From: an uncultured Gammaproteobacteria bacterium
GTDB taxonomy: Bacteria; Patescibacteriota; Microgenomatia; UBA12405
Length of the DNA: 64,000 bases
Direction: 5' to 3'
Assembly (NCBI GenBank): GCA_964448465.1
Contig: CAYUVY010000001.1
Span: forward strand, 25,196-89,195
Part shown: positions 2,333 through 41,096 of the stretch, in pieces
How positions within the stretch are numbered: position 1 is the stretch's first letter
Layout of the letters: every line of letters starts with the position of its first letter
Program-made: the position numbers and the translations under genes
The notes under the pieces: model-generated
The model's database searches: none
The model's input: the letters and a program-made list of their open reading frames with translations, nothing else
What the model was told of the DNA's origin: nothing

Positions 2333-4057
2333 GTGATATATATTCTGATATTTTTCATATCATTTTTTACTAAGATTTATAAGATAAATTTCGTCCCCCC
2401 AAGCCTTTTTTCCGACGAGGTAGATATTGGATATCAAGCTCAAATATTTAATAAATGTTATAGTGACTACTACGGTAATTTTTTACCAACCCATTTCCAC
2501 TCCTTTTCTGACTGGCGAACCTCCGGATATTTATATTCCACAATAATTCTTGAAAAGTTAGGTATAAATTCTGACTTATCTATTAGACTACCAGCAGCTA
2601 TTTATGGTTCTTTGTGTGTCTTACTCTTAATTCTTATCATTAATATCTCTACCAAATTAACTATTATTCAAAAAATAACCCTAGCTATCGTTTTTTCCCT
2701 AAATCCTTGGTTGTATCACTACAGTAGAACAGGTTTTGAAGTCACCGGGATGCTATTTTTTATACTATTGGGCATATTCTGGCTAATCAAGTCCTACCAC
2801 AAATTTCAAACAAAACTATTTACCATGGGATTGATTTCTTTGGTAGTTAGTACTTATTTTTACTCCACTGCTAAGTTTTTTTCGCCAGCCTTAGCTTTGA
2901 TTTTTATAATTCTAACTATAACCAAAAACAAGATTAAGATATCTAAAATACTTTTACCGATATTTATCGTATTTCTGTTTTGTATCCCACAGGTTAAAGA
3001 TATTTATCAGCAAAAATCTGGATACAGATTTTCTTATATTAGTGTTTTTTCCGATCCTTTTATCTCCAAGAAAATTGATTTTCAAAGATATTTAGATTCT
3101 TTTCCCAATGTTGAAAAGAAAGTTGGCTATCAAACCACCTTATTTGAAAAAATATTACACAACAAAATAACCAATGTTGGTCAGACCATTTTAAATAATT
3201 ACTTTAATTCATTTTCCACAAGCTTTTTAATTATCAAAGGGGACGAAAACTTACGACAGGGATTTGGAGAGTACGGTATGCTTTTGATCGTAGAATACAT
3301 ATTCTTGTTCTTGGGATTATATCTATGTTTTAAAAAAACTCCATCTTTTACTTCTAAGCTTTTTTTAGTAATTCTAATTTTAGCGCCCATACCTTCCTCT
3401 TTAACCCGAGACTCAGCCGGACCCCATGCTACCAGATTAATACTCCTTCTACCATCAATAATGTATTTTTATGGAAATAGCCTTATTTACCTATTTAATA
3501 AAAAAATATTAGTCACAATTGTCTTTATCTTATTAGCGACAAATTCCATATTTTTTTATGAATCATATTTTGTTCATTATCCAAGCATATCCGAAGAATC
3601 CTGGCACCTAGGCTTAAAAGAAGCTGTACTTTTTGCAAACAATCAACAACAAGCTAATCCACAAACTATTAATTATTACAGCAGTCAAGTTGAGTCTTTT
3701 GTTCCTTTCTTTTTGTATTACACAAAATACTCACCCGTGTTAAATAGTTGTGCTCCAGCACTAACCATTTCTTCACAAAAAATTCAAAATGAGGAGTATC
3801 TTAAAGCAGAAAATAACAACTATTTTGGTAAATTTGACTGGCAGGAGTTAATAAAACAAGACTTTGGACTTAATTCCCACTTTATACTAAGAAACTCTGA
3901 GCTAACAAATCTAAAGCAAGGGGTTGATAATTACAACAATAATTATCAACCCACAAGCAAACTAACGACAAAAATACTTTGGAAATACAACAGTCCATAT
4001 TATGAAGGCAATTATCCGCTAGTCGTAGGTCTTGATTTCATACCAAACACACAATGA
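2333..4057 (+). CDS. Polytopic membrane glycosyltransferase, GT-C fold (ArnT/PMT_2-like, GT39/GT83-like)
   Basis: 574 aa with many predicted TM helices. Acidic first-loop motif SLFSDEVDIGYQ sits shortly after the first hydrophobic segment. GTG start at 2333 is preceded by TATAAT at 2321-2326. The start codon is uncertain. Confidence 0.65.
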   Translation: MIYILIFFISFFTKIYKINFVPPSLFSDEVDIGYQAQIFNKCYSDYYGNFLPTHFHSFSDWRTSGYLYSTIILEKLGINSDLSIRLPAAIYGSLCVLLLILIINISTKLTIIQKITLAIVFSLNPWLYHYSRTGFEVTGMLFFILLGIFWLIKSYHKFQTKLFTMGLISLVVSTYFYSTAKFFSPALALIFIILTITKNKIKISKILLPIFIVFLFCIPQVKDIYQQKSGYRFSYISVFSDPFISKKIDFQRYLDSFPNVEKKVGYQTTLFEKILHNKITNVGQTILNNYFNSFSTSFLIIKGDENLRQGFGEYGMLLIVEYIFLFLGLYLCFKKTPSFTSKLFLVILILAPIPSSLTRDSAGPHATRLILLLPSIMYFYGNSLIYLFNKKILVTIVFILLATNSIFFYESYFVHYPSISEESWHLGLKEAVLFANNQQQANPQTINYYSSQVESFVPFFLYYTKYSPVLNSCAPALTISSQKIQNEEYLKAENNNYFGKFDWQELIKQDFGLNSHFILRNSELTNLKQGVDNYNNNYQPTSKLTTKILWKYNSPYYEGNYPLVVGLDFIPNTQ

Positions 4058-5646
4058 AAAAATACATCTTACTTCTTTTTTTAATAATCTTATTACCATA
4101 TTTCAAACTAATTTTACCCGGATTCCCTTCTTTACAAGATCAAATGCACCCTCTACGACTTACTGACTTGAGACAGTGTCTTTCGGATCACCAAATACCT
4201 TGCCGTTATTCTACAAAATCTGCCTTAGGTTATGGCTACCCCTTGTTTAATTTTTACGGCCAAGGTGCTTATCTTCTACCAGCATTATTCAGCTATATTT
4301 TACCCTTAAATTCCTACGATTTGATGAAAATTCAAATTATTCTTTTTGCCTGTATCGGTGGTTTGGGCATATTTTTATTAGCAAAAACCAACAAATTGGA
4401 CAACCCCACCTCGATCCTGTTTGCAACTATTTTTAGTTATACGCCATATTTTGCCTTAGATGTATATGTTCGAGGAGCAATACCTGAATTTTCCGCCTTA
4501 ATGCTCATACCATGGATCTTTCTTCTCTCTTACCAAAACAGAACTATTTTCACCAACCTCGCCCTATCCTTAATTATCTTGACCCACATTCAAACAGGTT
4601 TAATAACCTTATTAATTTACTTATTTTATCTTATATTCTCCCACAAAAACAGACAGGCTCTTCTAAGCCTTTTGACTACATTGTTACTTTGTAGTTTTTA
4701 CTTAATCCCCGTTATCTTAGAAAACAATTTGGTCCAACTGAGCTCTACAACGAAAGGCATTTTTGACTACAATATCCATTTTCTCAACTTAAAGCAAATA
4801 TTTATCTCACCTTTTTGGGGATACGGAGCCTCAACATGGCTTGACAAAGACGGTATGGGTTTTACGTTGGGAATACCTTTAATTTTTCTTATTGCTACCA
4901 GTGTGTATCTCTATTTTAAATATCAGCAAAAAAAATTACCAAGTACATTTTTACTAATTATTTCCATTCTTTTTATATTTCTGGCCCATACTCGTTCAGC
5001 TTTTATATGGAAAATATTACCACTCGGTTATTATCAATTCCCCTGGAGATTTTTAGGTCTGGCCTCAATATTCACAATTATATTTTCTATTAACATTGTC
5101 AGCAAAAGCAATCTCCAGGCAAAATCCTTACCATTATTTGGAATCATACTTATCACTATACTTATCAACGCTCCTTATTTTCGGCCAGATATGGTCTTAT
5201 CCTACGATTACTTAAATACTCCCCAAAAACAAATCGAAATATCCTTGGGTGGTATTCAAGACTATTGGCCTACTACAGCCAAATCTATTCCCACTACACC
5301 AGCTCCAAATTTATTGCTTAACCTTGGACCAAAATACTATCCAACAACAACTAGTTTTACAAGAAAAAGTAATAGCATAGAAATAAAAGCCATTAACCCA
5401 GTTAGACAAGAATTAATCATCCCCATGTCCTATTATCCCGGGTGGGAGCTATTCGTAAACAGTAATCCAACACACATCACCCTGGATTCCACTTCAGGGT
5501 TTCCTAAGATAACTTTAGATCCGGGGCAGTACCAAATAAACATGTACCTCCAGAAAACAAAAGTACAAAAATATTCTGAATACTTAAGCTTGTTAACTAT
5601 TTTTGCTTTAATTTTTATAAAGATCAAAAATGTCAAACAAGCATAA
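4054..5646 (+). CDS. Polytopic integral membrane protein, probable GT-C-like/YfhO-like glycan-modifying protein
   Basis: 530 aa and highly hydrophobic with more than 10 predicted TM segments. ATGA overlap with the upstream gene. No DE motif was seen, so assignment to GT-C is by context only. Confidence 0.5.
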   Translation: MKKYILLLFLIILLPYFKLILPGFPSLQDQMHPLRLTDLRQCLSDHQIPCRYSTKSALGYGYPLFNFYGQGAYLLPALFSYILPLNSYDLMKIQIILFACIGGLGIFLLAKTNKLDNPTSILFATIFSYTPYFALDVYVRGAIPEFSALMLIPWIFLLSYQNRTIFTNLALSLIILTHIQTGLITLLIYLFYLIFSHKNRQALLSLLTTLLLCSFYLIPVILENNLVQLSSTTKGIFDYNIHFLNLKQIFISPFWGYGASTWLDKDGMGFTLGIPLIFLIATSVYLYFKYQQKKLPSTFLLIISILFIFLAHTRSAFIWKILPLGYYQFPWRFLGLASIFTIIFSINIVSKSNLQAKSLPLFGIILITILINAPYFRPDMVLSYDYLNTPQKQIEISLGGIQDYWPTTAKSIPTTPAPNLLLNLGPKYYPTTTSFTRKSNSIEIKAINPVRQELIIPMSYYPGWELFVNSNPTHITLDSTSGFPKITLDPGQYQINMYLQKTKVQKYSEYLSLLTIFALIFIKIKNVKQA

Positions 5647-7243
5647 GATTGTCCTTATCTTAATATTCTTTCTTGGTTTATTCCTTCGAACTTACAAGCT
5701 AGGCGAATATCCTGCTAGCCTAAACTGGGATGAGGTAAGTCACGGTTATACTGCCTACAGCATTCTAAAAACTAGTAAAGATCAATGGGGGCAAAAATTA
5801 CCCATATTTAATTTTCGAGCTTACGGTGATTATCCTACAACCTTAAACATGTACACAACCATACCTCTAATTAAGCTATTGGGATTACAAGACTGGGTTA
5901 TTAGGCTTCCAACGGCGATTTTGGGCGCATCTATGATTATTTCAGCCTATTTTATCTCGCAATATTTTCTACAAAATGGCGCTGGTTCTTTATTAGTTAG
6001 TTTATTGGTTGCCATCTCACCTTGGACATTTTTCTCCAGTAGGGGAGTCTATCAGTCTACCGTAGGTCAGGCTATTTTTATGCTTGGACTTGCAGTTTTT
6101 TTTAGACAAAAAAACAAATTTGCCTTAGGTTTTGGGTCTTTAATTATTTCCTTATCAGTTTTTGGTTATCATTCCAATCGTATAGTTTCAAGTTTAATTT
6201 TAGTCTATTTAATTTACAAATATAAGCGAACTATTATTCAGCAACACTTATTTTCCAAATTACTGATTACTATCTCTATTCTCATAATTTGTTTTTCTAC
6301 GATAAACATCATTAGTCCCGAGTCTAGGGCCAGATCTGCCTGGGTTGGCATCCTAAACATTTCCTCTGAAAACACCATAAACGAGGCAAGGCGAATATCC
6401 CCACAACCAGAAATAATTAAAAAAGTACTCTACAACAAAGCCACCTACCTAATTCCCAGATTAATTGGTAATTTTTTTAACTTACAAAACCCAATACCAC
6501 TATTTGTTACTGGTTCCAACCAATATCAATACAATCTACCCAACTTTGGACTTATTTACCCCACGCTCTTACCTTTCTTCTACTTGGGCTTAATAATTAT
6601 TTTATTTAATCCAAAAAGAAGTAAAAATACCGATTTTCTTGTACTTTGGGCTGTTGCCTTAATTCCAAGTCTAATTACCACAGGTGACTTTCCTACGCTT
6701 CGTTTGGCGACCATAATTCCACTACCTTTTATCGCCATAACCTATGCACTAATAAAACTGCCCAAACTCTTTAGACCTTTAATTTTACTGGTGACTATTC
6801 CTTTGTTTATATTTTATTATTATCAATATTTTTTCAATTACAACACAACCTATTCCAGTTCTTGGCAATATGGTTATAAACAAGTTGTCGAAATAGTTAG
6901 GCCTTTATATCCCCAATATGACCATATCATTATTACCAAAAAATATGGTGAACCACATGAATTTGTACTATATTATTGGCCGTGGGACCCCCAAACTTAC
7001 CAACAAGATCAACAAAAAATAACAGATTATCACGCTAACTGGTATTGGGTCGATGCTTTTGATAAATTTGTTTTTGTCAACGACTGGGAGATGAGCTCTT
7101 ACCTACTACAACACAATAGTGAAAATAATTTAATAATTACCTCGCCAAATAATTACCCCAAAGATATAAACTATTCTCATCTTCAAACAATTAACTTTTT
7201 AAACCAGCAACCAGCTTTTGAAATAATTGCCAATGAAATATAA
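5630..7243 (+). CDS. GT-C fold membrane glycosyltransferase (ArnT/PMT_2-like)
   Basis: First-loop motif NWDEVSHGYTAYSILKTSKDQWG and an SRGVYQ motif are paralogous to the next two genes. 537 aa, polytopic. Confidence 0.75.
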   Translation: MSNKHKIVLILIFFLGLFLRTYKLGEYPASLNWDEVSHGYTAYSILKTSKDQWGQKLPIFNFRAYGDYPTTLNMYTTIPLIKLLGLQDWVIRLPTAILGASMIISAYFISQYFLQNGAGSLLVSLLVAISPWTFFSSRGVYQSTVGQAIFMLGLAVFFRQKNKFALGFGSLIISLSVFGYHSNRIVSSLILVYLIYKYKRTIIQQHLFSKLLITISILIICFSTINIISPESRARSAWVGILNISSENTINEARRISPQPEIIKKVLYNKATYLIPRLIGNFFNLQNPIPLFVTGSNQYQYNLPNFGLIYPTLLPFFYLGLIIILFNPKRSKNTDFLVLWAVALIPSLITTGDFPTLRLATIIPLPFIAITYALIKLPKLFRPLILLVTIPLFIFYYYQYFFNYNTTYSSSWQYGYKQVVEIVRPLYPQYDHIIITKKYGEPHEFVLYYWPWDPQTYQQDQQKITDYHANWYWVDAFDKFVFVNDWEMSSYLLQHNSENNLIITSPNNYPKDINYSHLQTINFLNQQPAFEIIANEI

Positions 7244-8750
7244 AAACTTAATTATATTTTTAATCCTGATCTTAGCCAGCCTACTCAGGATATACAAAGT
7301 TAACGTTTATCCGCCCTTACTTTGGGACGAAGCCTCCCTTGGTTACAATGCCTACAGTCTACTAAAAACAGGCAAAGATGAATTTGGTACAATCCTACCC
7401 CTCACTCTTAAGTCCTTTGGAGACTACAAGCCAGCCCTATACGCCTATATAGACATACCTTTTGTGGCCATTTTTGGATTAACCCAGTTTGCGGTTAGAC
7501 TACCTTCCGTTTTGGCCGGAATTCTTACTGTGTACTTAATTTATCTAGTCATAGATTTATATACTAAAAATACTAAACTAGCACTTCTGGCTAGTTTTTT
7601 ACTAGCAACTAATCCTTTTCATATCCTTCTTTCTCGAGGTGCCTGGGAAACAAATCTAGTTTCTACTTTCTTTTTAGCTGCTATATACTTTCTTCAAAAT
7701 AAAAAGTATTTGTTCTCAATCATATTTTTTGTTCTACCCGCCTACACCTATCAATCTGCCAAGTTAACTGCCCCACTTCTGTTTTTAACTACCTTATTAA
7801 TCTACCCAAAAGTAAAAACAGTATACAAATTAGCTATCTTTTTTTGTTTATTTTCTCCGTTAATTTTTCTAAATTTTTTTGGCAAGGATAGTAACCGATT
7901 TAAAACTATGACTATTCTTAGCTATACCCAGCCAGACATCAGTAAAACTAGTATTTTCTTTCCTCAGTTATGGTTTATGACTAAAAATGTATTGATACGC
8001 TATTTTAACCACTTTTCTCCTCAGCTATTGTTTACTCAAGGTGATTGGCAAAACCCCAGGCAATCCGCACCATATACAGGTATCTTGTTGCTAATTACCT
8101 TACCGTTTCTAATAATTGGTTTATTTTCTTCCAAACCAAATAAATTACATCAATTGCTGTTAATTTGGCTATTTTTGGCACCCATACCCAGTAGTCTGAC
8201 CAAAGACATTGTCCAACCTGTTCGTGCTACCTCTTTTATAATACCCCTAGTTTTTTTTACTGCAGTAGGTATCGAAAAAATTCTCAAACACAAGTTCCTC
8301 TTGAGTCTGTTCATTATTGTTTTGGTAATAAATTTAGCATATGTTCAAGAAATGTACTACCAACATATGGTTAAAAAATCACCGCAAGAGTGGCTATTTG
8401 GCTATCAAGAAGCAATCCAGTTTGCACTAAATAAACAATCCGAACAAACTTTTTTTACTAACTTTTATGGACAACCACACATCTATTATGCCTTTGTCTC
8501 CAAGATGGACCCAGTTTATTATCAGTCGCAGATAAAGTTGACAACCACAAGCAACGATGTGGGTACGGTTGACAAACTAAACAGCTGGGAATTTAAGGAT
8601 ATAAATTTTAACCAATACAAAGACTATAAAAATATTACTTTGGTTATGTCAAGAGACGAACTGTTAAGGCAAAACTTGGATTTTGCAATGTTTACACCAC
8701 TTGGTTCTACTGATATTAATTATGCAAATTTTTATGGTTATAAAAAATAA
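7227..8750 (+). CDS. GT-C fold membrane glycosyltransferase (ArnT/PMT_2-like), paralog
   Basis: Motifs LWDEASLGYNAYSLLKTGKDEFG and SRGAWETN are present. Clear paralog of the 8734..10311 gene. Confidence 0.75.
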   Translation: MPMKYKNLIIFLILILASLLRIYKVNVYPPLLWDEASLGYNAYSLLKTGKDEFGTILPLTLKSFGDYKPALYAYIDIPFVAIFGLTQFAVRLPSVLAGILTVYLIYLVIDLYTKNTKLALLASFLLATNPFHILLSRGAWETNLVSTFFLAAIYFLQNKKYLFSIIFFVLPAYTYQSAKLTAPLLFLTTLLIYPKVKTVYKLAIFFCLFSPLIFLNFFGKDSNRFKTMTILSYTQPDISKTSIFFPQLWFMTKNVLIRYFNHFSPQLLFTQGDWQNPRQSAPYTGILLLITLPFLIIGLFSSKPNKLHQLLLIWLFLAPIPSSLTKDIVQPVRATSFIIPLVFFTAVGIEKILKHKFLLSLFIIVLVINLAYVQEMYYQHMVKKSPQEWLFGYQEAIQFALNKQSEQTFFTNFYGQPHIYYAFVSKMDPVYYQSQIKLTTTSNDVGTVDKLNSWEFKDINFNQYKDYKNITLVMSRDELLRQNLDFAMFTPLGSTDINYANFYGYKK

Positions 8751-10311
8751 ACAACTTTTAGTAACAGTCATAATCATGATACTGGCTGTATTCCTAAGAG
8801 CATATCATCTTGATACTTACCCTCCAATCAACGCCGACGAGGCTGCCTTAGGTTATAACGCCTACAGTTTGTTGCAAACAGGCAAAGATGAACACGGTGC
8901 CTCCTGGCCTCTCCATTTCCAATCATTTGGAGACTATAAACCAGGTGGCTACATCTATTTATTGTTACCTTTTGTTAAAATTTTAGGATTAAATTCTCTT
9001 GCCTTACGTCTGCCAAACTTGCTTTTGTCGATTCTCTGTATTTATCTAGTGGGGCAAATATCTAGACTTATGTTAAAAAATGATTATGCACAATATTTTT
9101 CCATGTTATTTATGGCTATTTCACCTTGGCACATAATCTTTAGTCGTGGTGCCTGGGAAAGTAGTTTTGCTTTTTCTTTGTTTATTCTTGGTTTATATTT
9201 ATTCCTAAAAAAACAAAAGATAGTTATTACCGCCATCTTTTGGGCCCTTAGTCTATATTTTTATCATTCAGCTAGGGTTTTTCTTCCTTTGTTTTTATTA
9301 AGTTTACTTATTTCTAATATTAAAGATAAAATTGAGTTTAAACGAGTACTATTAATCGGTGTCTTAGTTGCACTTTTAAGTTTACCGGCTTTCGTTTCCT
9401 TTCTTAAAAATAGTGGCACAGCTAGGTTTAACGGTGTTGGCATTTTTGCTGACCTCGGACCAAAAAATCGTGCCGAAGAGTTGCTAAACCAAGATGCAAA
9501 CACAAAACTTATCAACAGAATCACCCACAACTACAGATTACTTTATCTATTTTCTTTTGTAGATAAATATTTATCCCATTTCAACCTAAACTTCTTATTT
9601 ATAGAAGGGGATAGCGTCCCACGCTCTAAACTACCAGACCTTGGGCAAACTAGTCTATTTTTCTTTCCTTTATTTCTTTTGGGTTTATTTGCTTTGACCA
9701 AGCTAGACAGCAAGACAAAAATACTAATGCTTATTTTGTTATTTACCTCTCCCATTGCCTCTGCTTTAACCTTTCAGGCACCTTCTGCCCTTCGCAGTCT
9801 TTATCTTTTGCTTCCTTTGACTTTAATACTTACTCTTGGCTCACTACAACTACTAAAGTATAAAAGGACTTTTTTAACATTATTCACAATAGCCACACTT
9901 TTTAGCACCACCCAGCTAATCTATAGTTATTTCTATCGCTATCCTCGAGAACTATCCTTAGCTTGGCCTTATAGATTCCAGGAAGTAGTTAACTATCTAA
10001 AGACAAATAATTCCAATAACCTACCAGTTTATTTTACAAATACTTACGATCAGCCATATATACTTTACCTGTATTATTCCCAGTACCCTCCTTCCCGAGC
10101 CCAGACTCAAACTAAACTTACCACTCCCGACCAGTTTGGTTTCTCCACTGTCGAAAAGATAGATAACATAACTTTTGAGATTCCCAAATATACTGATATC
10201 GCCTCAAATTCCACCATAGTTGCTTCTAATGAAGTTATTCCAATCCTGCCAAAATTAACTTTTAATTTCGCAAATGGCCAAAATGCGTTTAAAATATATC
10301 AAAAGCCATGA
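8734..10311 (+). CDS. GT-C fold membrane glycosyltransferase (ArnT/PMT_2-like), paralog
   Basis: Motifs NADEAALGYNAYSLLQTGKDEHG and SRGAWESS are present. The N-terminus aligns with the 7227 gene when started at ATG 8734. The track start at 8683 is probably too far upstream. Confidence 0.75.
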   Translation: MVIKNKQLLVTVIIMILAVFLRAYHLDTYPPINADEAALGYNAYSLLQTGKDEHGASWPLHFQSFGDYKPGGYIYLLLPFVKILGLNSLALRLPNLLLSILCIYLVGQISRLMLKNDYAQYFSMLFMAISPWHIIFSRGAWESSFAFSLFILGLYLFLKKQKIVITAIFWALSLYFYHSARVFLPLFLLSLLISNIKDKIEFKRVLLIGVLVALLSLPAFVSFLKNSGTARFNGVGIFADLGPKNRAEELLNQDANTKLINRITHNYRLLYLFSFVDKYLSHFNLNFLFIEGDSVPRSKLPDLGQTSLFFFPLFLLGLFALTKLDSKTKILMLILLFTSPIASALTFQAPSALRSLYLLLPLTLILTLGSLQLLKYKRTFLTLFTIATLFSTTQLIYSYFYRYPRELSLAWPYRFQEVVNYLKTNNSNNLPVYFTNTYDQPYILYLYYSQYPPSRAQTQTKLTTPDQFGFSTVEKIDNITFEIPKYTDIASNSTIVASNEVIPILPKLTFNFANGQNAFKIYQKP

Positions 10312-11099
10312 AAACCAAAAGATTCCACACCTTATCTGTCGCTATCGCCACCTACAACGAAGAAAACTTTATTGGTAGCCTACTAGACCAGATATCAAAC
10401 TGGGCAGAAGAAATTATTATTGTCGATGGCTCCTCCACTGACAAAACTCAAGAAATCATCAAAAAATATTCCAAAGTAAAAGTAATCACCACCAGCAATA
10501 AACCCATTTTTCATATTAATAAACAAATGGCCATAGATGCCTGTACACGGGATTGGGTCTTGCAGTTAGATGCCGACGAGATCCCGTCTGAAAATTTAAA
10601 AAATGAAATTGACCAGCTACTTTCCAATAAGATCATCGAAAAACAAGGCTACTGGTTAAATCGGGCCAACTATTTTTTGGGTAGGTTTCTAAAAAAAGGT
10701 GGTCAATATCCAGATCCCACCTTGCGACTTTACCAACGGGGACTGGGCAGTCTTCCTTGCAAATCAGTGCACGAACAAGCAGTAGTCCAGGGAACCACCG
10801 GGCACCTAAAAAATGATCTTTTACATTACGCCGACCGTTCATTTACACGTTATCTAACCAGACATAATCGTTATACTACCCTAATTTCCCAGGAAATTAC
10901 TAATCCAGATTTTTTTGATTATTTTATCTTAAAACCACATCTTTGGTTTTTAACTACTTACTTCCGCCACAAAGGTTTCCAAGACGGTTTCCCCGGGTTT
11001 GTTTTTTCATTTTTTTCTGCACTCAGATTTCCAATAGCTTATGTTAAATATTGGGAAAATAAAACTACCAAACACATTCAAAGCAATGACTGGCAATAA
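10308..11099 (+). CDS. Glycosyltransferase family 2 (GT2)
   Basis: LSVAIATYNEENFIGSLLDQI...IVDGSSTDKT, with the DADE acidic motif at QLDADEIP. ATGA overlap with the upstream gene. Confidence 0.8.
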   Translation: MKTKRFHTLSVAIATYNEENFIGSLLDQISNWAEEIIIVDGSSTDKTQEIIKKYSKVKVITTSNKPIFHINKQMAIDACTRDWVLQLDADEIPSENLKNEIDQLLSNKIIEKQGYWLNRANYFLGRFLKKGGQYPDPTLRLYQRGLGSLPCKSVHEQAVVQGTTGHLKNDLLHYADRSFTRYLTRHNRYTTLISQEITNPDFFDYFILKPHLWFLTTYFRHKGFQDGFPGFVFSFFSALRFPIAYVKYWENKTTKHIQSNDWQ

Positions 11100-12141
11100 A
11101 CAAAAAATAGTTCAAATAGTTCTACCTCCTCAAACCGATACAAGTAAATTTAGAGGTATAGGTGAATACACCCAACACCTAATTGACCACGTATCTAAAC
11201 AAAAAAAATATCAACTTCTTTTGCAACATGAAATTTCACCCAAGGCAGATTTAATCCACTATCCCAGTTTAGACTTTTTTAAAACCACCTTACCTTTAAT
11301 TTTTAAGCAACCAACTATTTTAACAGTTCACGACGTTATCCCGATAGAATACGCCAATCATTTCCCCGTGGGCCTTAAAGGCAAATTGGCCTGGTTATAT
11401 CAAAAACAACGCTTACAATCTGCAAATTTTATTCTTACCGACTCCCATAGCTCTAAATATAGTTTGCATAGACAAACCGGTTACCCTCTTTCTAAGATAT
11501 ACAATGTTTACCTAGGTGCAGACACCAATTATCATCCGATCCAAAAACTTGAAGCCAAAAAACTAGCTCAAAATTTACACTTACCCGAGCAATTTGTTCT
11601 ATATGTAGGCGATATTAATTGGAATAAAAATATACCCAACTTATTAAATGCCTGCATAAATATTTCAATACCTCTGGTTTTAGTAGGCAAAACTGCTAGT
11701 ACCCCACTAAACGAAGTGCCACATCATCCTTGGACAGAAGATATTCGATATCTCAAAATAATGCAAGAAAAATACCCCAAACTAATTCTTACCCCAGGCT
11801 ACTTAGAAACAAAAACTATTAATGCCTTATACCAACTAGCCTTGTGTTATTGTCAACCTTCTTTTGCCGAAGGATTTGGCCTACCACTGCTACAGGCTAT
11901 GCAGGCCGGTTGCCCCATTGCTTATAGCTACACTACCAGTTTAATTGAAATAGGTAATTATGTGGGGCAAATCTTTAATCCTGAAAAAACAAAGCAAATA
12001 GAAAAATGTGTATTACAATACAAAAACGATCCCAAACTTCGAGAAAATTCCATCAATAGTGGTTTAATCCAAGCCCAAGCTTTCTCTTGGGAAAAAGCTG
12101 CCACACAAACTTTAGCTGTCTATGACTTAGCTATAAAATGA
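11086..12141 (+). CDS. Glycosyltransferase family 4 (GT4)
   Basis: EGFGLPLLQAMQAGCPIAYS is a GT4 C-terminal motif. The internal ATG at 11086 was chosen because the track start at 11041 overlaps the upstream gene by 59 bp. Confidence 0.75.
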   Translation: MTGNKQKIVQIVLPPQTDTSKFRGIGEYTQHLIDHVSKQKKYQLLLQHEISPKADLIHYPSLDFFKTTLPLIFKQPTILTVHDVIPIEYANHFPVGLKGKLAWLYQKQRLQSANFILTDSHSSKYSLHRQTGYPLSKIYNVYLGADTNYHPIQKLEAKKLAQNLHLPEQFVLYVGDINWNKNIPNLLNACINISIPLVLVGKTASTPLNEVPHHPWTEDIRYLKIMQEKYPKLILTPGYLETKTINALYQLALCYCQPSFAEGFGLPLLQAMQAGCPIAYSYTTSLIEIGNYVGQIFNPEKTKQIEKCVLQYKNDPKLRENSINSGLIQAQAFSWEKAATQTLAVYDLAIK

Positions 12142-12944
12142 TTACTACCAACCATTTTTTGAGTGTTATTGTCCCTATTTATAAGCAGGAAAAAACAATT
12201 CAAGAAGACATAAGTCAAATTTTAAACACACTCTCGCTTTTACGCTACGATTTTGAACTAATTGCCGTTGTCGATGGCATTAATGTTGATAATTCCTATA
12301 AAATATTAAAAAAAATAAACAATCCAAAACTAATTGTCACCGGATATTTACACAACAAAGGTAAGGGTAATGCTGTTCGTTTTGGTATGGCCAAATCCAA
12401 AGGTGACTATGTCGCCTTTATTGATTCTGGTATGGATATCGACCCCAACGGTATCTCCATGCTTATAGAACACCTTGAGTGGTATAAAGCCGATATTATC
12501 ATTGCCTCCAAAAATCATCCAGCCTCTATGGTTGTCTATCCTCTACAACGTAAGATTTTGAGTCTAATTGTTCAGACTTATATGCGCTTGTTCTTAGGTC
12601 TAAAGATTACCGATTCCCAAGCAGGACTAAAATTATTTAAACGAAAGGTTTTAGTCGCAGTTTTACCAAGGCTGCTAGTAAAAAATTTTGCTATAGATCT
12701 GGAAATATTAAGTGTGGCAAAATACTTGGGCTTTGACAAAATTTACGAAGCCCCTATTAAACTTAAATATGACTTTAAACCACTTACTCATTCCTCCACA
12801 AACTTAAAGGCTATCAAGCAGTTTGCTATCGACGCCTTAGCAATTTTTTATCGTATATATATTAAGCGCTACTATCGTGATAATAATTATCGGCAGTGGG
12901 TTTTTGATCCTGAACTAAAAATGCGCGTCAATACTGGCCAATGA
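12138..12944 (+). CDS. Glycosyltransferase family 2 (GT2), DPM1-like soluble type
   Basis: LSVIVPIYKQEKTIQEDI...VDGINVDNS. ATGA overlap with the upstream gene. Confidence 0.75.
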   Translation: MITTNHFLSVIVPIYKQEKTIQEDISQILNTLSLLRYDFELIAVVDGINVDNSYKILKKINNPKLIVTGYLHNKGKGNAVRFGMAKSKGDYVAFIDSGMDIDPNGISMLIEHLEWYKADIIIASKNHPASMVVYPLQRKILSLIVQTYMRLFLGLKITDSQAGLKLFKRKVLVAVLPRLLVKNFAIDLEILSVAKYLGFDKIYEAPIKLKYDFKPLTHSSTNLKAIKQFAIDALAIFYRIYIKRYYRDNNYRQWVFDPELKMRVNTGQ

Positions 12945-13924
12945 CACCTGTACCAATTTTTACTATCATTATTGCCGGTCGTAGTCACAATAAACTATTA
13001 GACCAAACTATCTCTGCTTTAAATAAACAAACCTGTAAATCCTATGAGGTAATTATTATTTTAGACAAAGATATAGATTCTACCCAAAGAGAACAAGTTA
13101 TTCCTGCCTTTAAGCGCAACCTTGGAGCAAAAAGAGCCAAAGGGGAAATACTTGCGTTTTTAGACGACGACTCCTATCCGGATCCATTGTGGCTAACAAA
13201 CGCTCTAACGATCTTTAGTACTAACGCACAAACTCTTGCTCTGGGTGGACCAAGCCTTACCCCTCCAGAAAACAACATCCTTCAACAAGCCAGCGGTTTA
13301 ATCTATTCCAGCTTTTTAGGTTCGGGTGGAGCAGGGGACTATCGCAATTTAATTAAACCCGAAAGATATGTAGACGATTATCCAACTGTCAATTTTTTTA
13401 TTCGCAAAAAAATATTTAACCAACTTGGTGGCTTTGACACCAAACATTGGCCAGGAGAAGATACCTTACTTTGTCGAAAACTAATCAAATATCAAGCAAA
13501 TTCCATCTTATATTCTCCTTTGCCCATTGTTTACCACCACCGTCGACCAATTGGACTAAGTTTACTAAAACAAATTAGTCGTTACGGCCAACACCGAGGT
13601 TTTTTTGCCAAAATATATCCCGAAAATAGCCTTAAACTTGGCTACCTTATACCGCCAATATTTACACTATATATCCTAAGTTTATTTTTCTTTCATACCA
13701 AAATATATCTTACCCCCTTGCTTGCCTACGCCTCGCTAGTTCTTGTTAATTTCTTTTTGCAAATCAAAAATAATCTTTGGGCCAATCTGGTTTCCAACTT
13801 ATTTATCCCCTTAGTTCACCTTACCTACGGGTTATTTTTTCTAAAAGGCTTTTTGTTTACCAAAGATTTATTAAGTCAGCCACACACCCTTAATACCAAG
13901 ACTGGTCAATATCAAGGTGGATAA
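12941..13924 (+). CDS. Glycosyltransferase family 2 (GT2) with C-terminal TM helices
   Basis: FTIIIAGRSHNKLLDQTISALNKQT...LDDD is a GT2 signature. Hydrophobic C-terminal segments are present. ATGA overlap with the upstream gene. Confidence 0.75.
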   Translation: MTPVPIFTIIIAGRSHNKLLDQTISALNKQTCKSYEVIIILDKDIDSTQREQVIPAFKRNLGAKRAKGEILAFLDDDSYPDPLWLTNALTIFSTNAQTLALGGPSLTPPENNILQQASGLIYSSFLGSGGAGDYRNLIKPERYVDDYPTVNFFIRKKIFNQLGGFDTKHWPGEDTLLCRKLIKYQANSILYSPLPIVYHHRRPIGLSLLKQISRYGQHRGFFAKIYPENSLKLGYLIPPIFTLYILSLFFFHTKIYLTPLLAYASLVLVNFFLQIKNNLWANLVSNLFIPLVHLTYGLFFLKGFLFTKDLLSQPHTLNTKTGQYQGG

Positions 13925-13939
13925 GGTATACTGGAATTC

Positions 13940-15457
13940 ATGTCTAAGAAAAAACTATCCATAGCTATTTCTTACCCCCCTCTAGAAACCAACAAAGGCA
14001 CAGCCTTTTTATCCCAAAATCGCCAGTTTCAATGGACAAATACAGGAAATTGTATATATCCAGTAATCCCAGCTTATGCCGCTAGTTTGTTAGAAAGAGA
14101 AGGCTACCAGGTTTATTGGGACGACGCTATTGCCGAAAAACTCAGCAAAGATCAATGGCTCAAACGGATATTAGAATTAAAGCCAGACGTCATTGCCATT
14201 GAGTCCAAAACACCTACTATCAAATGGTACTGGCAAGTTATCGATGAACTACGCACCTACCAAACTAAATCCTGGCAACCCACCATAGTCTTGCTTGGTG
14301 ATCATCTTACGGCTCTTCCCCAAGAATCCCTAGAAAATTGCTCTGTAGACCTGGTAATCACTGGTGGCGACTATGATTTTATGTTGCTAAATCTAATGAA
14401 CAACTTGGATCACGGAGAAACCTTAGAACCTGGTATCTGGTACAGGGATGGTAAAACTATAAAAAACACCGGTCCATATGCTTTAAAACACCACAATCTC
14501 GACAGCTTGCCTTTTATTAACCGAGATCTAACTAAATGGGAACTTTATGCCTACAACAATGGCAATTATAAATACACTCCAGCCACCTATATGATGACCG
14601 GACGCGACTGCTGGTGGGGTAAGTGTACCTTTTGCTCTTGGACCACTATTTTCCCCGGTAAGGCATTTCGGTTTTTTACTCCCAAGCGTACTCTTGCCGA
14701 AGTAAAACACGTGGTCGACAATTATAGTATCCGCGAGATTTTTGATGACGCCGGTACTCTCACTCCGGGCGCCTGGATTCATGAATTTACCAAAGGACTA
14801 ATATCATCAGGTCTACACCAAAAGGTTCGTTATGGAGCCAATATGCGCTTTAATGCTGTTGGTGAAAAAGAGTACCAAACCATGGGTGAAGCCCGATTTA
14901 GATTTATGCTCTATGGCCTAGAATCTAGTAATCAAAAGACTTTAGATCTACTTGAGAAAGGTACCAAAACCGAGGACGCCAGAAAGTCCCTAACTTTAGC
15001 CAAAAAATACGGTATGGAACCACACTTAACTATCATGATTGGTTATCCTTGGGAAACTCGTCAAGATGCCCTAAATACTCTAGAAGAAGCCCGAAGCTTA
15101 TTTCGAGACTGCCTGGCCGATTCTATGCAAGCCACCATTGTCATACCCTATCCTGGTACACCGCTATTTAAACAATGCCAAGAAAATAATTGGCTTTTAA
15201 CCAACGATTGGAACGATTATGATATGCGCCAAGCTATCATGAAATGCGACATGGGCACAGAAGAATTAAAAGCCATGGTTCAGAGTTTATTCAAAGGGGT
15301 GCTTACACCAAAATTCTTAACCAAAAAGATTAGTTCTATTCGCAGCGTAGATGACGTTAAGCATCTGGGTAGCTATGCCTATAAGTTTATTAAAAAACTG
15401 AAGGATTTCCCAGTCTACAATGCCAACACTCTCGGTAGTCATACCCACGCTCAATAG
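13940..15457 (+). CDS. B12-binding-domain radical SAM-like enzyme (class B-like), function unknown
   Basis: N-terminal Rossmann-like B12-binding-type domain (KPDVIAIESKTPT...IVLLGDHLTALP...LVITGGDYDF). Cys triad GRDCWWGKCTFCSW has Cx4Cx2C spacing rather than the canonical Cx3Cx2C. A downstream GLESSNQKTLDLLEKG motif matches the rSAM core. Locally elevated GC. Confidence 0.65.
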   Translation: MSKKKLSIAISYPPLETNKGTAFLSQNRQFQWTNTGNCIYPVIPAYAASLLEREGYQVYWDDAIAEKLSKDQWLKRILELKPDVIAIESKTPTIKWYWQVIDELRTYQTKSWQPTIVLLGDHLTALPQESLENCSVDLVITGGDYDFMLLNLMNNLDHGETLEPGIWYRDGKTIKNTGPYALKHHNLDSLPFINRDLTKWELYAYNNGNYKYTPATYMMTGRDCWWGKCTFCSWTTIFPGKAFRFFTPKRTLAEVKHVVDNYSIREIFDDAGTLTPGAWIHEFTKGLISSGLHQKVRYGANMRFNAVGEKEYQTMGEARFRFMLYGLESSNQKTLDLLEKGTKTEDARKSLTLAKKYGMEPHLTIMIGYPWETRQDALNTLEEARSLFRDCLADSMQATIVIPYPGTPLFKQCQENNWLLTNDWNDYDMRQAIMKCDMGTEELKAMVQSLFKGVLTPKFLTKKISSIRSVDDVKHLGSYAYKFIKKLKDFPVYNANTLGSHTHAQ

Positions 15458-16427
15458 TCAAAATACTCTTGCCCTTTGTCTAGACAGCCTTTTTAAGCAA
15501 AAATATAGGAACCTGGAGTTAATCATCTGCGACGGAGGCTCTCTTGACCAAACACTTTTAATAGCCAAAAAATATCATGCAATTATCCTAAAAAATACTC
15601 TCAAAACTGCCGAAGCCGGCAAAGCTCTGGGCCTAAAAAAGGCCACCGGTAAATATGTATTATTGCTAGATTCCGACAATATTTTACCAAATTCCAATTG
15701 GCTAGATGAGTTAATAAAACCACTAGACGGCGACCTGGTAGCTATAGGAAGTGAACCCTGGGCTTTTACTTATCGCCCAAAGGCAGGTTTTATCGAGCGT
15801 TACAGTGCCTTAATAGGGGCCAATGATCCATATGCCTGGTTTACCCACAAACTAGACAAAATAAATTATTTAAGTAACACTTGGCCACACCCTGAGCTCA
15901 TAAATGAAGAAAATTCCCAATACTTGACTCTAAAACTAACTAAAAATAAAATTATCCCCACGATAGGAGCCAATGGCACAATTTTCCGCACGAACTTCCT
16001 AAAAAAGCACAGCAATAAAGACTTTTTGTTTGATATAGATATTATTAATCAGGCTGTAAACAAACAAGATTTACTATTTATAAAAACGAAAAATAGCATT
16101 ATTCATACTTATTGCGAGTCGTCTGTTAAAAAATTTATACGTAAACAGACCCGTAGAATGCTAGATTACTACCAATACCAAGCAGTACGCCAGACTTCTT
16201 GGCAAACCACTTCCACCTCCCCAGACAATCTGCTCTTTACTTTATATAGCATATTATTTTTACCTGCACTTGGTACCTGTCTGTATGGTTATTTCAAAAA
16301 GCCAGACAGAGCTTGGTTTTTTCATCCATTAGCTTGTTTTCTTAGCGCTTGGATTTACATTTCTAAATATATACAAAACAAGTTGGGCTTACTAAAATAT
16401 CAAAATAGGTTAAACTGGTCACAATGA
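15420..16427 (+). CDS. Glycosyltransferase family 2 (GT2)
   Basis: LSVVIPTLNSQNTLALCLDSL...CDGGSLDQT, plus an LLDSDN acidic motif. Confidence 0.75.
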   Translation: MPTLSVVIPTLNSQNTLALCLDSLFKQKYRNLELIICDGGSLDQTLLIAKKYHAIILKNTLKTAEAGKALGLKKATGKYVLLLDSDNILPNSNWLDELIKPLDGDLVAIGSEPWAFTYRPKAGFIERYSALIGANDPYAWFTHKLDKINYLSNTWPHPELINEENSQYLTLKLTKNKIIPTIGANGTIFRTNFLKKHSNKDFLFDIDIINQAVNKQDLLFIKTKNSIIHTYCESSVKKFIRKQTRRMLDYYQYQAVRQTSWQTTSTSPDNLLFTLYSILFLPALGTCLYGYFKKPDRAWFFHPLACFLSAWIYISKYIQNKLGLLKYQNRLNWSQ

Positions 16428-40145: not shown

Positions 40146-41096
40146 ATGAAACAAACTGCTAAATTAATAAGTATTGTGATCCCTGCATTTAATGAAAGTA
40201 AAATAATTTCAACTTCTGTTTCTAGGGTGATTAAAACATTAATCAAAATTATAAAAATATCGTTAATAAATAACTATGAAATAATTTTTGTAGATGACGG
40301 TAGCAAAGATAACACATGGGGTTGCATTAAAAATTTACATAAAAAAAATTCAAGAATCAAAGGTATAAAGTTATCACGAAATTTTGGTATGCAGACTGCA
40401 CTGATGGCTGGTTTAAAAAAAGCAACGGGGGATTACACAGTAATACTTGAATGCGACCTACAAGATCCACCGGAATTAATTGAGGGAATGTTAAATAAAT
40501 TGATAAAAACAAGAAGTGATATTGTATGTGGAAAGAGAATAAGTCGATCAGAATCAGGTCAAAAGCAATTTGTATTTAAACTATTCCATTATATTTTTCA
40601 CAACATTAGTAACATAAAGGTCCCTCAAAATGTCGGCACCTTTTCAATTTTAAACAGAAGAGCGCTAACTGCCCTGTTAAGTTTTAAAGAAAAAAACCGG
40701 TACATACCTGCTCTAAGATATCTTGTCGGATATAAACAAATATATGTAAACTATGAAAGACTTGACAGGGTTGATGGACCAGCCAAAATGAGCACATCAA
40801 AATTACTTGCTCTAGCATCAGACGCTCTCTTTTCATTCACTGATTTTCCTTTAAAGTTTTGTCTATTCCTGGGTTTTACTGGCGTTTTGCTATCTTTATT
40901 AGTAGGGTTGTATGCAATAATTTCAAGACTATTTAATTTCAATGTGATTATTGGTTGGAGCTCAACACTACTTAGTATCTATTTTTTTGGCAGCCTACAA
41001 TTAATCTTTCTTGGAGTTATTGGACAATATATTTTTAAAATATACATAGAGGTTCAGGATAGGCCCGACTATTTTATATCAGACGAAACAAAATAA
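40146..41096 (+). CDS. Polyprenyl-phosphate glycosyltransferase (GT2; GtrB/ArnC/DPM1-like, two C-terminal TM helices)
   Basis: ISIVIPAFNESKII...FVDDGSKDNTW and DLQDPPEL motifs. Two C-terminal TM helices (FLGFTGVLLSLLVGLYAII...LIFLGVIGQYIFKIY) are typical of GtrB/ArnC. Confidence 0.75.
   Translation: MKQTAKLISIVIPAFNESKIISTSVSRVIKTLIKIIKISLINNYEIIFVDDGSKDNTWGCIKNLHKKNSRIKGIKLSRNFGMQTALMAGLKKATGDYTVILECDLQDPPELIEGMLNKLIKTRSDIVCGKRISRSESGQKQFVFKLFHYIFHNISNIKVPQNVGTFSILNRRALTALLSFKEKNRYIPALRYLVGYKQIYVNYERLDRVDGPAKMSTSKLLALASDALFSFTDFPLKFCLFLGFTGVLLSLLVGLYAIISRLFNFNVIIGWSSTLLSIYFFGSLQLIFLGVIGQYIFKIYIEVQDRPDYFISDETK

Follow-up and report, generated by a model that had tools for sequence, protein, structure and literature searches.

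A conserved operon encoding five GT-C-fold glycosyltransferases in a CPR bacterium

Systems in which a GT-A synthase, a flippase and a GT-C transferase act together have been brought into a common framework (PMC8035078; PMC5836110). GT-C enzymes are recognized by 8–13 transmembrane (TM) helices and a cytoplasmic N-terminus (PMC6801728; PMC5836110), and four conserved external-loop motifs together with an 11-TM, N-in topology have been described for them (PMC6801728). ArnT (GT83; Cupriavidus metallidurans, PDB 5EZM and 5F15; E. coli b2257) is encoded by a single gene of the arn operon and acts on lipid A, and the PMTs (GT39; Pmt1/2/4 and bacterial Pmt) transfer mannose to Ser/Thr residues of proteins. 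Sequentially acting series are known from the ER lumen (ALG3/9/12 and ALG6/8/10, the genes of which are unclustered) and from mycobacteria (Emb/Aft/Mpt/PimE). In Firmicutes, CsbB-GtcA-YfhO and GtlA-GtcA-GtlB decorate teichoic acids or cell-wall polysaccharides using one GT-A and one GT-C enzyme each, and the Pgf system of Streptococcus mutans (PgfS, PgfM1, PgfE, PgfM2) has a single synthase alongside more than one GT-C membrane protein.

Here, we analyzed a 64-kb stretch of DNA (the window) from a CPR bacterium that encodes five GT-C enzymes in a row, four from one family and one from another. In contrast to the single arnT gene, these 4+1 genes lie in a glycopolymer-type operon and, unlike the ALG genes, they are clustered; by analogy with the ALG and mycobacterial series, their products may act sequentially. 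The locus shares with the Firmicutes multi-component systems the logic of a GT-A synthase plus a GT-C transferase (PMC8035078), but it has five GT-C genes, and no GtrA/GtcA flippase was found in the window.

Gene structure and two GT-C families

The array comprises five consecutive ORFs on the + strand: g1 (2333..4057, 574 aa), g2 (4054..5646, 530 aa), g3 (5630..7243, 537 aa), g4 (7227..8750, 507 aa, or 505 aa from ATG 7233) and g5 (8734..10311, 525 aa from ATG 8734). The 542 aa first given for g5 include a TTG start at 8683 that is probably too far upstream, since gene callers take ATG 8722 or later and the alignment with g3 and g4 favours ATG 8734. With that start g4 and g5 overlap by 17 nt, as do g2/g3 and g3/g4 (11 nt for the latter counted from ATG 7233, the start chosen by gene callers), and g1/g2 overlap by 4 nt. 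The genes are real rather than chance ORFs, because their best homologues reach E-values of 1e-127 (g4) and 1e-81 (g2). The first-pass annotation had described five membrane-protein genes on one strand with overlapping stops and starts; coordinates, strand and overlaps all match, and all five products are polytopic.

Judged by sequence comparison, g1, g3, g4 and g5 are paralogues that diverged long ago within a PMT/ArnT-like family (family A), which is abundant in Microgenomates. Pairwise BLASTP identity is 27–32% among g3, g4 and g5, and 23–29% between g1 and these three, with E-values of 1e-20 to 5e-38 (29% and 5e-38 to g4, 25% to g5, 23% to g3). On this evidence g1 is as much a member of family A as the others, and it is the most divergent of the four; its DE, RLP, SR, Y and R alignment columns are invariant with those of g3, g4 and g5. 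Homology within family A is based on BLAST, and the family-A HMM scores of g1, g3 and g5 were left aside, as they are inflated by the presence of those sequences in the seed alignment. The acidic pairs quoted in the first-pass annotation for four genes are all present, in a single alignment column: D28-E29 in g1, D34-E35 in g3 and in g4, and in g5 D35-E36 from ATG 8734 (D52-E53 from the TTG start). The pair, 12 residues after TM1, is invariant in family A (52 of 52 sequences). A second pair of motifs, thought to be common to g3, g4 and g5, held in part: SRG[AV][WY][EQ] is in all three (g1 has the variant SRTGFE), but GDYKP is confined to g4 and g5, with GDYPT in g3.

Family A is only partly reached by existing profiles. 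Above Pfam thresholds, g4 matches PMT (PF02366, 26.3 vs 22.7) and PMT_2 (PF13231, 29.5 vs 26.1), and many of its orthologues carry precomputed matches to these models; g5 scores 22.5 bits against PMT, just below 22.7. A Pfam scan of all five proteins gave no match above gathering thresholds for g1, g2 or g3, and in none of them the MIR domain that eukaryotic-type PMTs have in their large luminal loop (E<=0.1). The likeness to PMTs is thus one of profile scores at threshold level, in a model that g1 and g3 miss. The NCBIfam result for g3 was a weak Agl23 match only. A scan of the 64-kb window found no further member of family A or of the g2 family, and only a single distant relative, at 57984–59378.

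All five proteins are assigned to the GT-C-fold glycosyltransferases. AlphaFold2 (AF2) models cover g4 and g2, and the fold of g1, g3 and g5 is assigned via homology to g4. The g4 model has 11 TM helices. In all four family-A paralogues the short loops on the inside carry 6–9 Lys/Arg per ~20 aa and those on the outside 1–2 per 24 aa, and the positive-inside rule gives an N-in orientation for these four and for g2. Together with the AF2 helices, this places the DE pair in the first external loop, outside the membrane. The residue pattern and topology agree with the GT-C motifs and topology described previously (PMC6801728).

Structural similarity to solved GT-C enzymes was found. ArnT was the top Foldseek match of g4, over the full length and including the C-terminal domain, and ArnT and ALG12 scored equal to or above PMTs. 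Sequence searches did not reach as far: phmmer of g4 and g2 against the PDB returned nothing relevant, the family-A profile retrieved no PDB chain at E<=1, and the alignment to E. coli ArnT was not significant (hhalign Prob 0.45%; hmmsearch ~0 bits). The similarity of family A to ArnT is therefore at the level of the fold only. On the Pfam PMT profile, an approximate and indirect mapping puts the Asp of the pair near position 24 (g4, g5) and ArnT D31 near position 29. As the ArnT alignment is not significant, equating the DE pair with the catalytic pair of ArnT and PMT rests on fold, position and topology rather than on residue-level superposition.

The second gene, g2, is unrelated to the other four by BLAST and belongs to a separate GT-C family (family B), which is YfhO/PTPS_related-like. 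When g2 was aligned with 55 sequences of its family, 41 of these matched PF10131 (PTPS_related) and 13 matched PF09586 (YfhO), whereas g2 itself has no Pfam match beyond DUF7649, at 21.4 bits against a threshold of 27. Its model shows 11 TM helices and a C-terminal TM anchor, with a β-rich external domain of 127 aa (residues 376–502) followed by the TM helix 503–529. This domain lies between the last two TM helices, as in YfhO (PMC5836110), but is much shorter than the 389 aa of B. subtilis YfhO. At the position equivalent to the DE pair, in external loop 1, g2 has D29-Q30, with a single Asp. Its own family has D-D/E there, and the activity of g2 is therefore less certain.

Operon order and its conservation

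The array opens a translationally coupled operon of 11 or more genes, conserved in both content and order in Shapirobacteria and Woesebacteria. Across a sample of 80 loci from these genomes, the order g1-g2-g3-g4-g5 recurs and is followed by six further genes at fixed positions, all on the + strand in the window. Directly downstream of g5 in every case is a GT2 gene (10308..11099, 263 aa, Pfam GT2), which overlaps g5 by 4 nt and was found in 66/80 loci at 57% identity. Next are a GT4/GT1 gene (11041..12141, 366 aa; Pfam Glycos_transf_1 and Glyco_transf_4; 64/80) and a DPMS-like GT2 gene (12138..12944, 268 aa, no TM helix; 53/80), the most conserved neighbour, at 61% identity. A GT2 with ~3 C-terminal TM helices (12941..13924, 327 aa; 46/80) precedes a B12-binding radical SAM enzyme (13940..15457, 505 aa; Pfam Radical_SAM and B12-binding; 38/80, 57% identity), which is HpnJ-like, its NCBIfam HpnJ score of 139 bits being below the cut-off. 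The last is a further GT2 (15420..16427, 335 aa; 34/80).

Each family-A protein has positional orthologues in other genomes. Median identity between positional orthologues is 35% for g1, 39% for g3 and 47% for g5. In the 80 genomes, every positional paralogue group keeps the D/E pair, D51, D66, R91, S136/R137, E141, Y175, K/R179, R224 and R333, including the g1 orthologues, which retain the catalytic-type residues. Residues of the external loops (EL) that are conserved in all groups are S136-R137 and E141 in EL2, Y175 and K/R179 in EL3, and T325, D327 and R333 in EL5 and at its boundary. Group-specific switches occur at positions 52, 273, 278 and 327, of which g3 has its own residues at 273, 278 and 327. 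Identity between paralogues is 32–62% in EL1 vs 19–30% in EL4 and the C-terminal domain.

Candidate donor synthases and flippase

The first-pass annotation had held that a GtrB-like synthase and a UPF0104 protein complete a three-component transfer system with the array. Both genes exist. The former (40146..41096, + strand) encodes a GtrB/ArnC/PgfS-type polyprenyl-phosphate sugar synthase of 316 aa with two C-terminal TM helices, which matches Synechocystis GtrB (5ekp) over its full length (E 6.8e-59) and ArnC (E 3.6e-34), and aligns full-length to the NCBIfam models PgfS (233 bits) and ArnC (138 bits). The PgfS score is below the 500-bit NCBIfam equivalog cut-off. The latter (49078..50007, − strand) encodes an LPG_synthase_TM membrane protein, the family formerly called UPF0104 (PF03706, 97 bits; TIGR00374 27.7 bits, below cut-off), and a flippase role for it in polyprenyl-phosphate-sugar transport is conjecture.

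Neither gene is linked to the array in relatives. They lie 30–40 kb away (30 kb for the GtrB-like gene), and homologues were found within ±10 kb of the array in 2/80 and 0/80 loci, respectively. The view that the system is complete also goes too far: GT-A synthase genes are present, but no dedicated flippase of the GtrA/GtcA, Wzx or ArnE/F type was found, there being no ORF of 60–230 aa with >=3 TM helices in the 64-kb window. Likewise, the polytopic ORFs scanned in the window gave no Wzx/Polysacc_synt match, and a Pfam search of the ORFs in the window detected no priming phosphoglycosyl transferase.

Linkage between a GT-A and the GT-C genes is instead provided by the DPMS-like GT2, which holds its fixed position in 53 loci. 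Its best PDB match is the Pyrococcus Dol-P-Man synthase 5mlz (E 2.9e-8 as a single sequence), and a profile of its orthologues aligns to 5mlz over residues 8–225 (E 7.7e-16), whereas the other GT2s align to the N-terminal half only. It also has weak NCBIfam matches to PgfS, AglJ, ArnC and PpgS. Because it sits inside the conserved operon, whereas the GtrB-like gene is unlinked elsewhere, it is our prime candidate for the donor synthase. The surrounding island is of the polysaccharide type, with a Wzm/Wzt ABC exporter, many GT2/GT4 genes, sugar-nucleotide enzymes and an MBOAT/AlgX pair. It also holds a DegT-type aminotransferase and formyl/acyl-transferase-like genes.

Possible functions of the array

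We consider it likely that the five GT-C enzymes of this operon carry out distinct steps on one cell-envelope glycopolymer or glycoconjugate, using lipid-linked sugar donors. A cytoplasmic GT-A enzyme, in the first place the DPMS-like GT2 and in the second the GtrB-like protein, would take a monosaccharide from a nucleotide sugar and attach it to polyprenyl phosphate, and a putative flippase would carry the lipid-linked sugar across the membrane. There, each GT-C enzyme would use the Asp/Glu pair of external loop 1 (D34/E35 in g4), together with conserved Arg, Lys and Tyr residues of external loops 2, 3 and 5, to pass the sugar on to an acceptor at the external side of the membrane. The cytoplasmic GT2/GT4 enzymes encoded next to the array would make the core of the glycan. 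We infer the use of polyprenyl-phosphate-sugar donors from the two synthase-like GT2s, one in the operon and one in the island. The paralogues most likely perform non-redundant steps that would differ in linkage, sugar or acceptor position, because they keep the catalytic-type residues and each has a fixed position across genomes, while they differ in external loops 4 and 5 and in the external C-terminal domain. Sequential action on one glycan is suggested by the conserved order, the retained catalytic residues and the diverged acceptor-side regions, features that would also fit parallel action on different acceptors.

More tentatively, the whole set of 11 or more genes (5–8 GT-C enzymes, the DPMS-like synthase, GT2/GT4 enzymes and the B12-radical-SAM enzyme) could be a lineage-wide extracytoplasmic assembly line of Microgenomates, in which the GT-C paralogues add one defined residue each, in a set succession, to a signature surface glycan. 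Were this possibility correct, the operon would play in these bacteria the part that the ER-lumen ALG3/9/12/6/8/10 or the mycobacterial Emb/Aft/Mpt series plays elsewhere, and its product, possibly with a radical-SAM-modified sugar, would be indispensable to these ultra-small and probably host-dependent organisms.

The family-A enzymes might instead be protein O-glycosyltransferases, PMT-like or PgfM-like, each with its own set of Ser/Thr-rich secreted or surface proteins (S-layer proteins, pilins, adhesins) and with no polysaccharide involved. We regard this as unlikely: the search for domains that bind protein, MIR included, found none, the GT2/GT4 and radical SAM partners and the Wzm/Wzt exporter of the island are typical of glycopolymer synthesis, relatives show no synteny between the PgfS-like gene and the array, and in structure comparison the enzymes with lipid-linked acceptors, ArnT and ALG12, do as well as PMTs or better. 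The rank of ArnT in the Foldseek search, the label "ArnT-like" given to relatives by JGI, and the aminotransferase and formyl/acyl-transferase-like genes of the island could also point to lipid modification, in which the head group of a membrane lipid or glycolipid gains a sugar or aminosugar that alters surface charge. This is very improbable, as no significant similarity to ArnT was seen in sequence, a set of five to eight different enzymes with a fixed order fits poorly with a single head-group change, and lipid A synthesis is not known from CPR bacteria.

A recent origin of the five genes by tandem duplication, whether they are redundant, dosage-related or a fast-diversifying, strain-variable surface decoration like serotype-converting gtr loci, is scarcely credible: four of the five are tandem paralogues on one strand and family-A copy number varies among genomes (1–8 per ±10 kb locus, mode 5, with extra copies upstream of the array in some), but for the core g3-g4-g5 and for g1-g2 this reading is contradicted by an identity of just 23–32% between the window's own paralogues vs 35–47% between same-order orthologues, which occur in dozens of genomes of two or more candidate phylum-level groups, by best-match scores that are nearly twice as high for the positional counterpart as for the second-best paralogue, and by the fixation of group-specific residues. 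The earlier view of the last three genes as recent paralogues thus fails; the array belongs to an ancient operon in which gene order has been conserved.

The enzyme class and reaction logic are textbook, and existing annotations of g4 relatives read "phospholipid carrier-dependent glycosyltransferase/GT39"; what is new, and only modestly so, is the conserved operon with its several GT-C genes. A literature search on GT-C, PMT, ArnT or undecaprenyl in Patescibacteria/CPR found nothing relevant, and to our knowledge almost nothing is known experimentally about the cell envelopes of these bacteria. Their genomes are ~1 Mb, and the upkeep of five to eight large GT-C enzymes in an order-conserved operon despite this size suggests a biologically important surface glycan, for example in host attachment or protection. 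The operon offers a defined, testable set of genes that could be reconstituted in a heterologous host and could guide the analysis of glycans or glycoproteomes in enrichments.

Two membrane-protein families in a five-gene array

Listing of open reading frames (ORFs) returned five consecutive plus-strand genes where the first-pass annotation had placed them, namely g1 (2333–4057, 574 aa), g2 (4054–5646, 530 aa), g3 (5630–7243, 537 aa), g4 (7227–8750, 507 aa) and g5 (8683–10311, 542 aa from a TTG start), and all five products are polytopic. Overlaps of 4 to 17 nt between stop and start codons within the array are consistent with translational coupling, and g5 overlaps the following GT2 gene (start 10308) by 4 nt. 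The TTG codon probably sets the start of g5 too far upstream; gene callers begin this gene at ATG 8722 or later, and its alignment with g3 and g4 favours ATG 8734. The array genes are real: we found more than 1200 homologues of g4 (E down to 1e-127 once its own species cluster is set aside) and about 200 of g2 (E = 1e-81).

By BLASTP, g1, g3, g4 and g5 (family A) are mutually homologous, at just 23–32% identity (g4–g5 32%, E = 1e-56; g1–g4 29%; g3–g4 28%; g3–g5 27%; g1–g5 25%; g1–g3 23%), while g2 had no BLAST similarity to any of the four. The earlier grouping of g3, g4 and g5 as paralogues was thus incomplete, because g1 is also homologous. Of the motifs on which it was based, SRG extends across the whole family (S136 is invariant and R137 occurs in at least 90% of members), and GDYKP is found in g4 and g5 only, with g3 reading GDYPT. 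In Pfam, g4 scored above threshold for PMT_2 (29.5 bits, threshold 26.1) and PMT (26.3, threshold 22.7), g5 fell just below the latter (22.5 bits), g1 and g3 had no match, and g2 matched DUF7649 only, below threshold; NCBIfam matches of the array proteins were all far below threshold. Most of the g4 relatives belong to Candidatus Shapirobacteria and Woesebacteria (Microgenomates, CPR/Patescibacteria), and the named ones are annotated as "phospholipid carrier-dependent glycosyltransferase", "glycosyltransferase family 39 protein" or "ArnT-like". Fifty-five aligned sequences of the g2 family (family B) matched PTPS_related (PF10131; 41 sequences), YfhO (PF09586; 13), PMT_2 (10) and STT3 (1); g2 therefore represents a second GT-C family. 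A profile–profile alignment covering the N-terminal ~180 residues linked families A and B (Prob 75%, E = 2.4e-5), placing the family A acidic pair D34-E35 opposite D29-Q30 of g2 (family B consensus D-D/E) and SRGAWE opposite VRGAxxE.

Conservation of the array was scanned in one genome per GTDB species, which yielded 246 loci with g4 relatives; the best 80 were kept, nearly all of them from Shapirobacteria, Woesebacteria or Microgenomates. HMM counts within ±10 kb, where many contigs are truncated, gave a mode of five family A copies per locus (range 1–8) and 0–2 family B copies. When each ORF in the best 80 loci was assigned to its best-matching window gene, the order g3-g4-g5 was almost universal and g1-g2-g3-g4-g5 was the commonest extended pattern. 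Positional counterparts had median identities of 35% (g1), 32% (g2), 39% (g3), 39% (g4) and 47% (g5), with best-match bit scores approximately twice those to the second-best paralogue. By these comparisons, orthologues are closer to each other than the window paralogues are, so the duplications predate the divergence of these lineages, and the array is an ancient, conserved operon. The first-pass annotation had called the paralogues recent, which both their low mutual identity and the closer positional orthologues contradict, and a recent, redundant duplication is an unlikely account of the array.

Compared with g3-g4-g5, the 5' part of the array has been more fluid in evolution. In many relatives, one to three additional family A copies lie before the g1 position, some of them on the other strand; there are relatives with two family B copies, and others with a family A copy in place of g2. 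Among the GTDB/GenBank MAG records with this operon, which is clearly of Microgenomates type, many (loci L007, L009, L010, L013 and others, from CAZ*/CAY* records) bear the title "uncultured Gammaproteobacteria bacterium" and one (L043) the title "Candidatus Methanoperedens sp."; such records are probably mislabelled, or their contigs mis-binned.

Predicted fold, topology and the acidic pair

AlphaFold2 models of g4 and g2, built from family alignments, were of high predicted quality (pLDDT 91.1 and pTM 0.91 for g4; 93.7 and 0.93 for g2), and both keep the GT-C fold, as the first-pass annotation had proposed. The top Foldseek match of g4 was ArnT (5f15/5ezm; E = 1.6e-6, TM 0.57, full-length coverage). 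Structural matches of lower rank included PIG-M, ALG9, PglB, AftA, AftB, AftD, ALG3, ALG6, DPY19, PimE and EmbA. We assigned g1, g3 and g5 to GT-C by their homology to the modelled g4.

In the g4 model, TM1 (residues 6–22) and TM2 (87–113) are separated by a 64-residue loop, and D34-E35 open its first helix. Loops were defined from the g4 helices and carried to the paralogues via alignment A1. In g1, g3, g4 and g5, the predicted cytoplasmic short loops hold 6–9 Lys/Arg per 18–23 residues and those on the opposite side 1–2 per 24 residues; the loops of g2 show the same asymmetry. The predicted family A layout is therefore 11 TM helices with the N-terminus inside, and an external C-terminal domain of ~125 aa. 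Helices and Lys/Arg distribution together place the loop bearing the acidic pair outside, and the quoted acidic strings were indeed recovered, in a single alignment column.

GT-C enzymes of the POMT, ALG12 and ALG9 types share a matching topology and four conserved external-loop (EL) patterns: a DxD/DE motif directly after TM1, an R and/or acidic residue in EL2, a basic residue in EL3, and a pattern in EL5/6 (PMC6801728). The family A counterparts are D34-E35, invariant in 52 of 52 sequences, S136-R137...E141 in EL2, Y175...K/R179 in EL3, and T325/D327/R333 in EL5/6. Sequence comparison gave no residue-level equivalence between this acidic pair and that of ArnT/PMT; through Pfam PMT profile coordinates, an indirect route, the family A and ArnT pairs lie ~5 profile positions apart or less. 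From position, invariance and fold, we infer that D34-E35 is the ArnT/PMT-type catalytic pair.

Every positional group keeps D34, E35, D51, D66, R91, S136/R137, E141, Y175, K/R179, R224 and R333, and group-specific switches occur at positions 52, 273, 278 and 327. Between paralogues, EL1 is best conserved (32–62%), and EL4 and the C-terminal domain least (19–30%), as expected if donor and catalytic chemistry were shared and acceptor recognition had diverged.

Operon partners and the surrounding island

Six plus-strand genes follow the array: a GT2 gene (10308–11099; homologue in 66 of the 80 loci), a GT4 gene (11041–12141; 64), a DPMS-like GT2 gene (12138–12944; 53), a GT2 gene with C-terminal TM helices (12941–13924; 46), a B12-binding radical SAM gene (13940–15457; 38) and another GT2 gene (15420–16427; 34). 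Order and strand are identical in 30 of the 80 loci, and most others have truncated versions of this order.

The DPMS-like product (12138–12944) is the most conserved partner (61% identity), and no TM helices are predicted for it. Its best solved relative is the Pyrococcus dolichol-phosphate mannose synthase (E = 2.9e-8 as a single sequence; E = 7.7e-16 with an orthologue profile, residues 8–225). This alignment runs the full length of the GT-A domain and takes in the acceptor-side loop; other GT2 structures match the N-terminal nucleotide-binding half only. The product is a candidate operon-encoded polyprenyl-phosphate sugar synthase. The radical SAM protein is HpnJ-like (139 bits, below cut-off), with 57% identity and a fixed position in the loci that carry it; its conserved operon membership hints at an unusual sugar modification, e.g. 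C-methylation or rearrangement.

The first-pass annotation had held that a three-component lipid-linked sugar transfer system was complete, with two distal genes as partners. The product of 40146–41096 is a genuine GtrB-family enzyme: it matched Synechocystis GtrB (5ekp) over its full length (E = 6.8e-59) and ArnC at E = 3.6e-34, had full-length profile scores of 233 bits for PgfS and 138 bits for ArnC, and has two C-terminal TM helices. The second partner (49078–50007, minus strand) is present, as an LPG_synthase_TM protein. Near the array in relatives, the former has a homologue in two of the 80 loci and the latter in none. Within the window we recognised no small polytopic GtrA-type ORF, no Wzx-type protein and no priming phosphoglycosyl transferase. 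The claim is therefore only partly supported, as synthase and transferase are present but no flippase was found in the window. A second GT2 protein with two C-terminal TM helices, a GtrB-like architecture (17424–18395, plus strand), lacks the full-length PgfS/ArnC similarity of the 40146–41096 product; it is possibly a third candidate for a lipid-sugar synthase.

The whole window (1–64000, 31–41% GC) is one glycosylation island, with at least 16 GT2 genes, at least 10 GT1/GT4 genes, six SAM methyltransferases and many sugar-nucleotide enzymes. It includes a Wzm/Wzt ABC exporter (28996–30529), a GT17-like gene (33991–34797), and an MBOAT gene (36799–38187) paired with one for an AlgX-like SGNH protein (38097–39395). 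A probable sixth GT-C-like enzyme is a 464-aa polytopic protein (57984–59378, plus strand) distantly related to family A (hhalign Prob 92%, E = 5.8e-7, residues 9–226), with weak matches to PMT_2 and to NCBIfam "cell surface glycopolymer formation" and with Q-A-D-T in place of W-D-E. For four other large polytopic proteins (35039–36769, minus; 56608–58020, plus; 41122–42720, minus; 27209–28975, minus), roles as additional GT-C-like enzymes, polymerases, ligases or flippases are conceivable. Two of them (576 aa and 470 aa) had no family match at all, one matched DUF2079 above threshold (30.4 bits), and one has ~9 TM helices and C-terminal TPR repeats. A 170-aa ORF (49998–50510, plus strand) matched the N-terminal half of GT4 only (Glyco_transf_4, 30.6 bits) and is perhaps a glycosyltransferase gene that has been truncated or split.

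A proposed role for the array

In the best-supported model, the array follows the logic of multi-component transmembrane glycosylation (review: PMC8035078), which has been shown genetically for CsbB/YfhO (PMC5836110). A GT-A enzyme would form a polyprenyl-phosphate sugar, the lipid-linked sugar would be flipped across the membrane, and a GT-C enzyme would move the sugar onto an acceptor outside. Fixed paralogue order, retained catalytic residues and diverged acceptor-side regions suggest that the paralogues carry out separate, non-redundant steps on a single product; the arrangement parallels that of the ALG or Emb/Aft/Mpt series. The wider island context fits a glycopolymer pathway; protein O-glycosylation of the PMT or Pgf kind is a serious rival to this reading, and lipid modification of the ArnT kind is unlikely.

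The enzyme class, motif and reaction logic are well established, and existing annotations already class relatives as GT39 or phospholipid-carrier-dependent glycosyltransferases. The literature searched, with incomplete coverage, yielded no description of a conserved multi-GT-C operon in CPR bacteria. The conservation of this operon in highly reduced genomes is the one moderately interesting feature.
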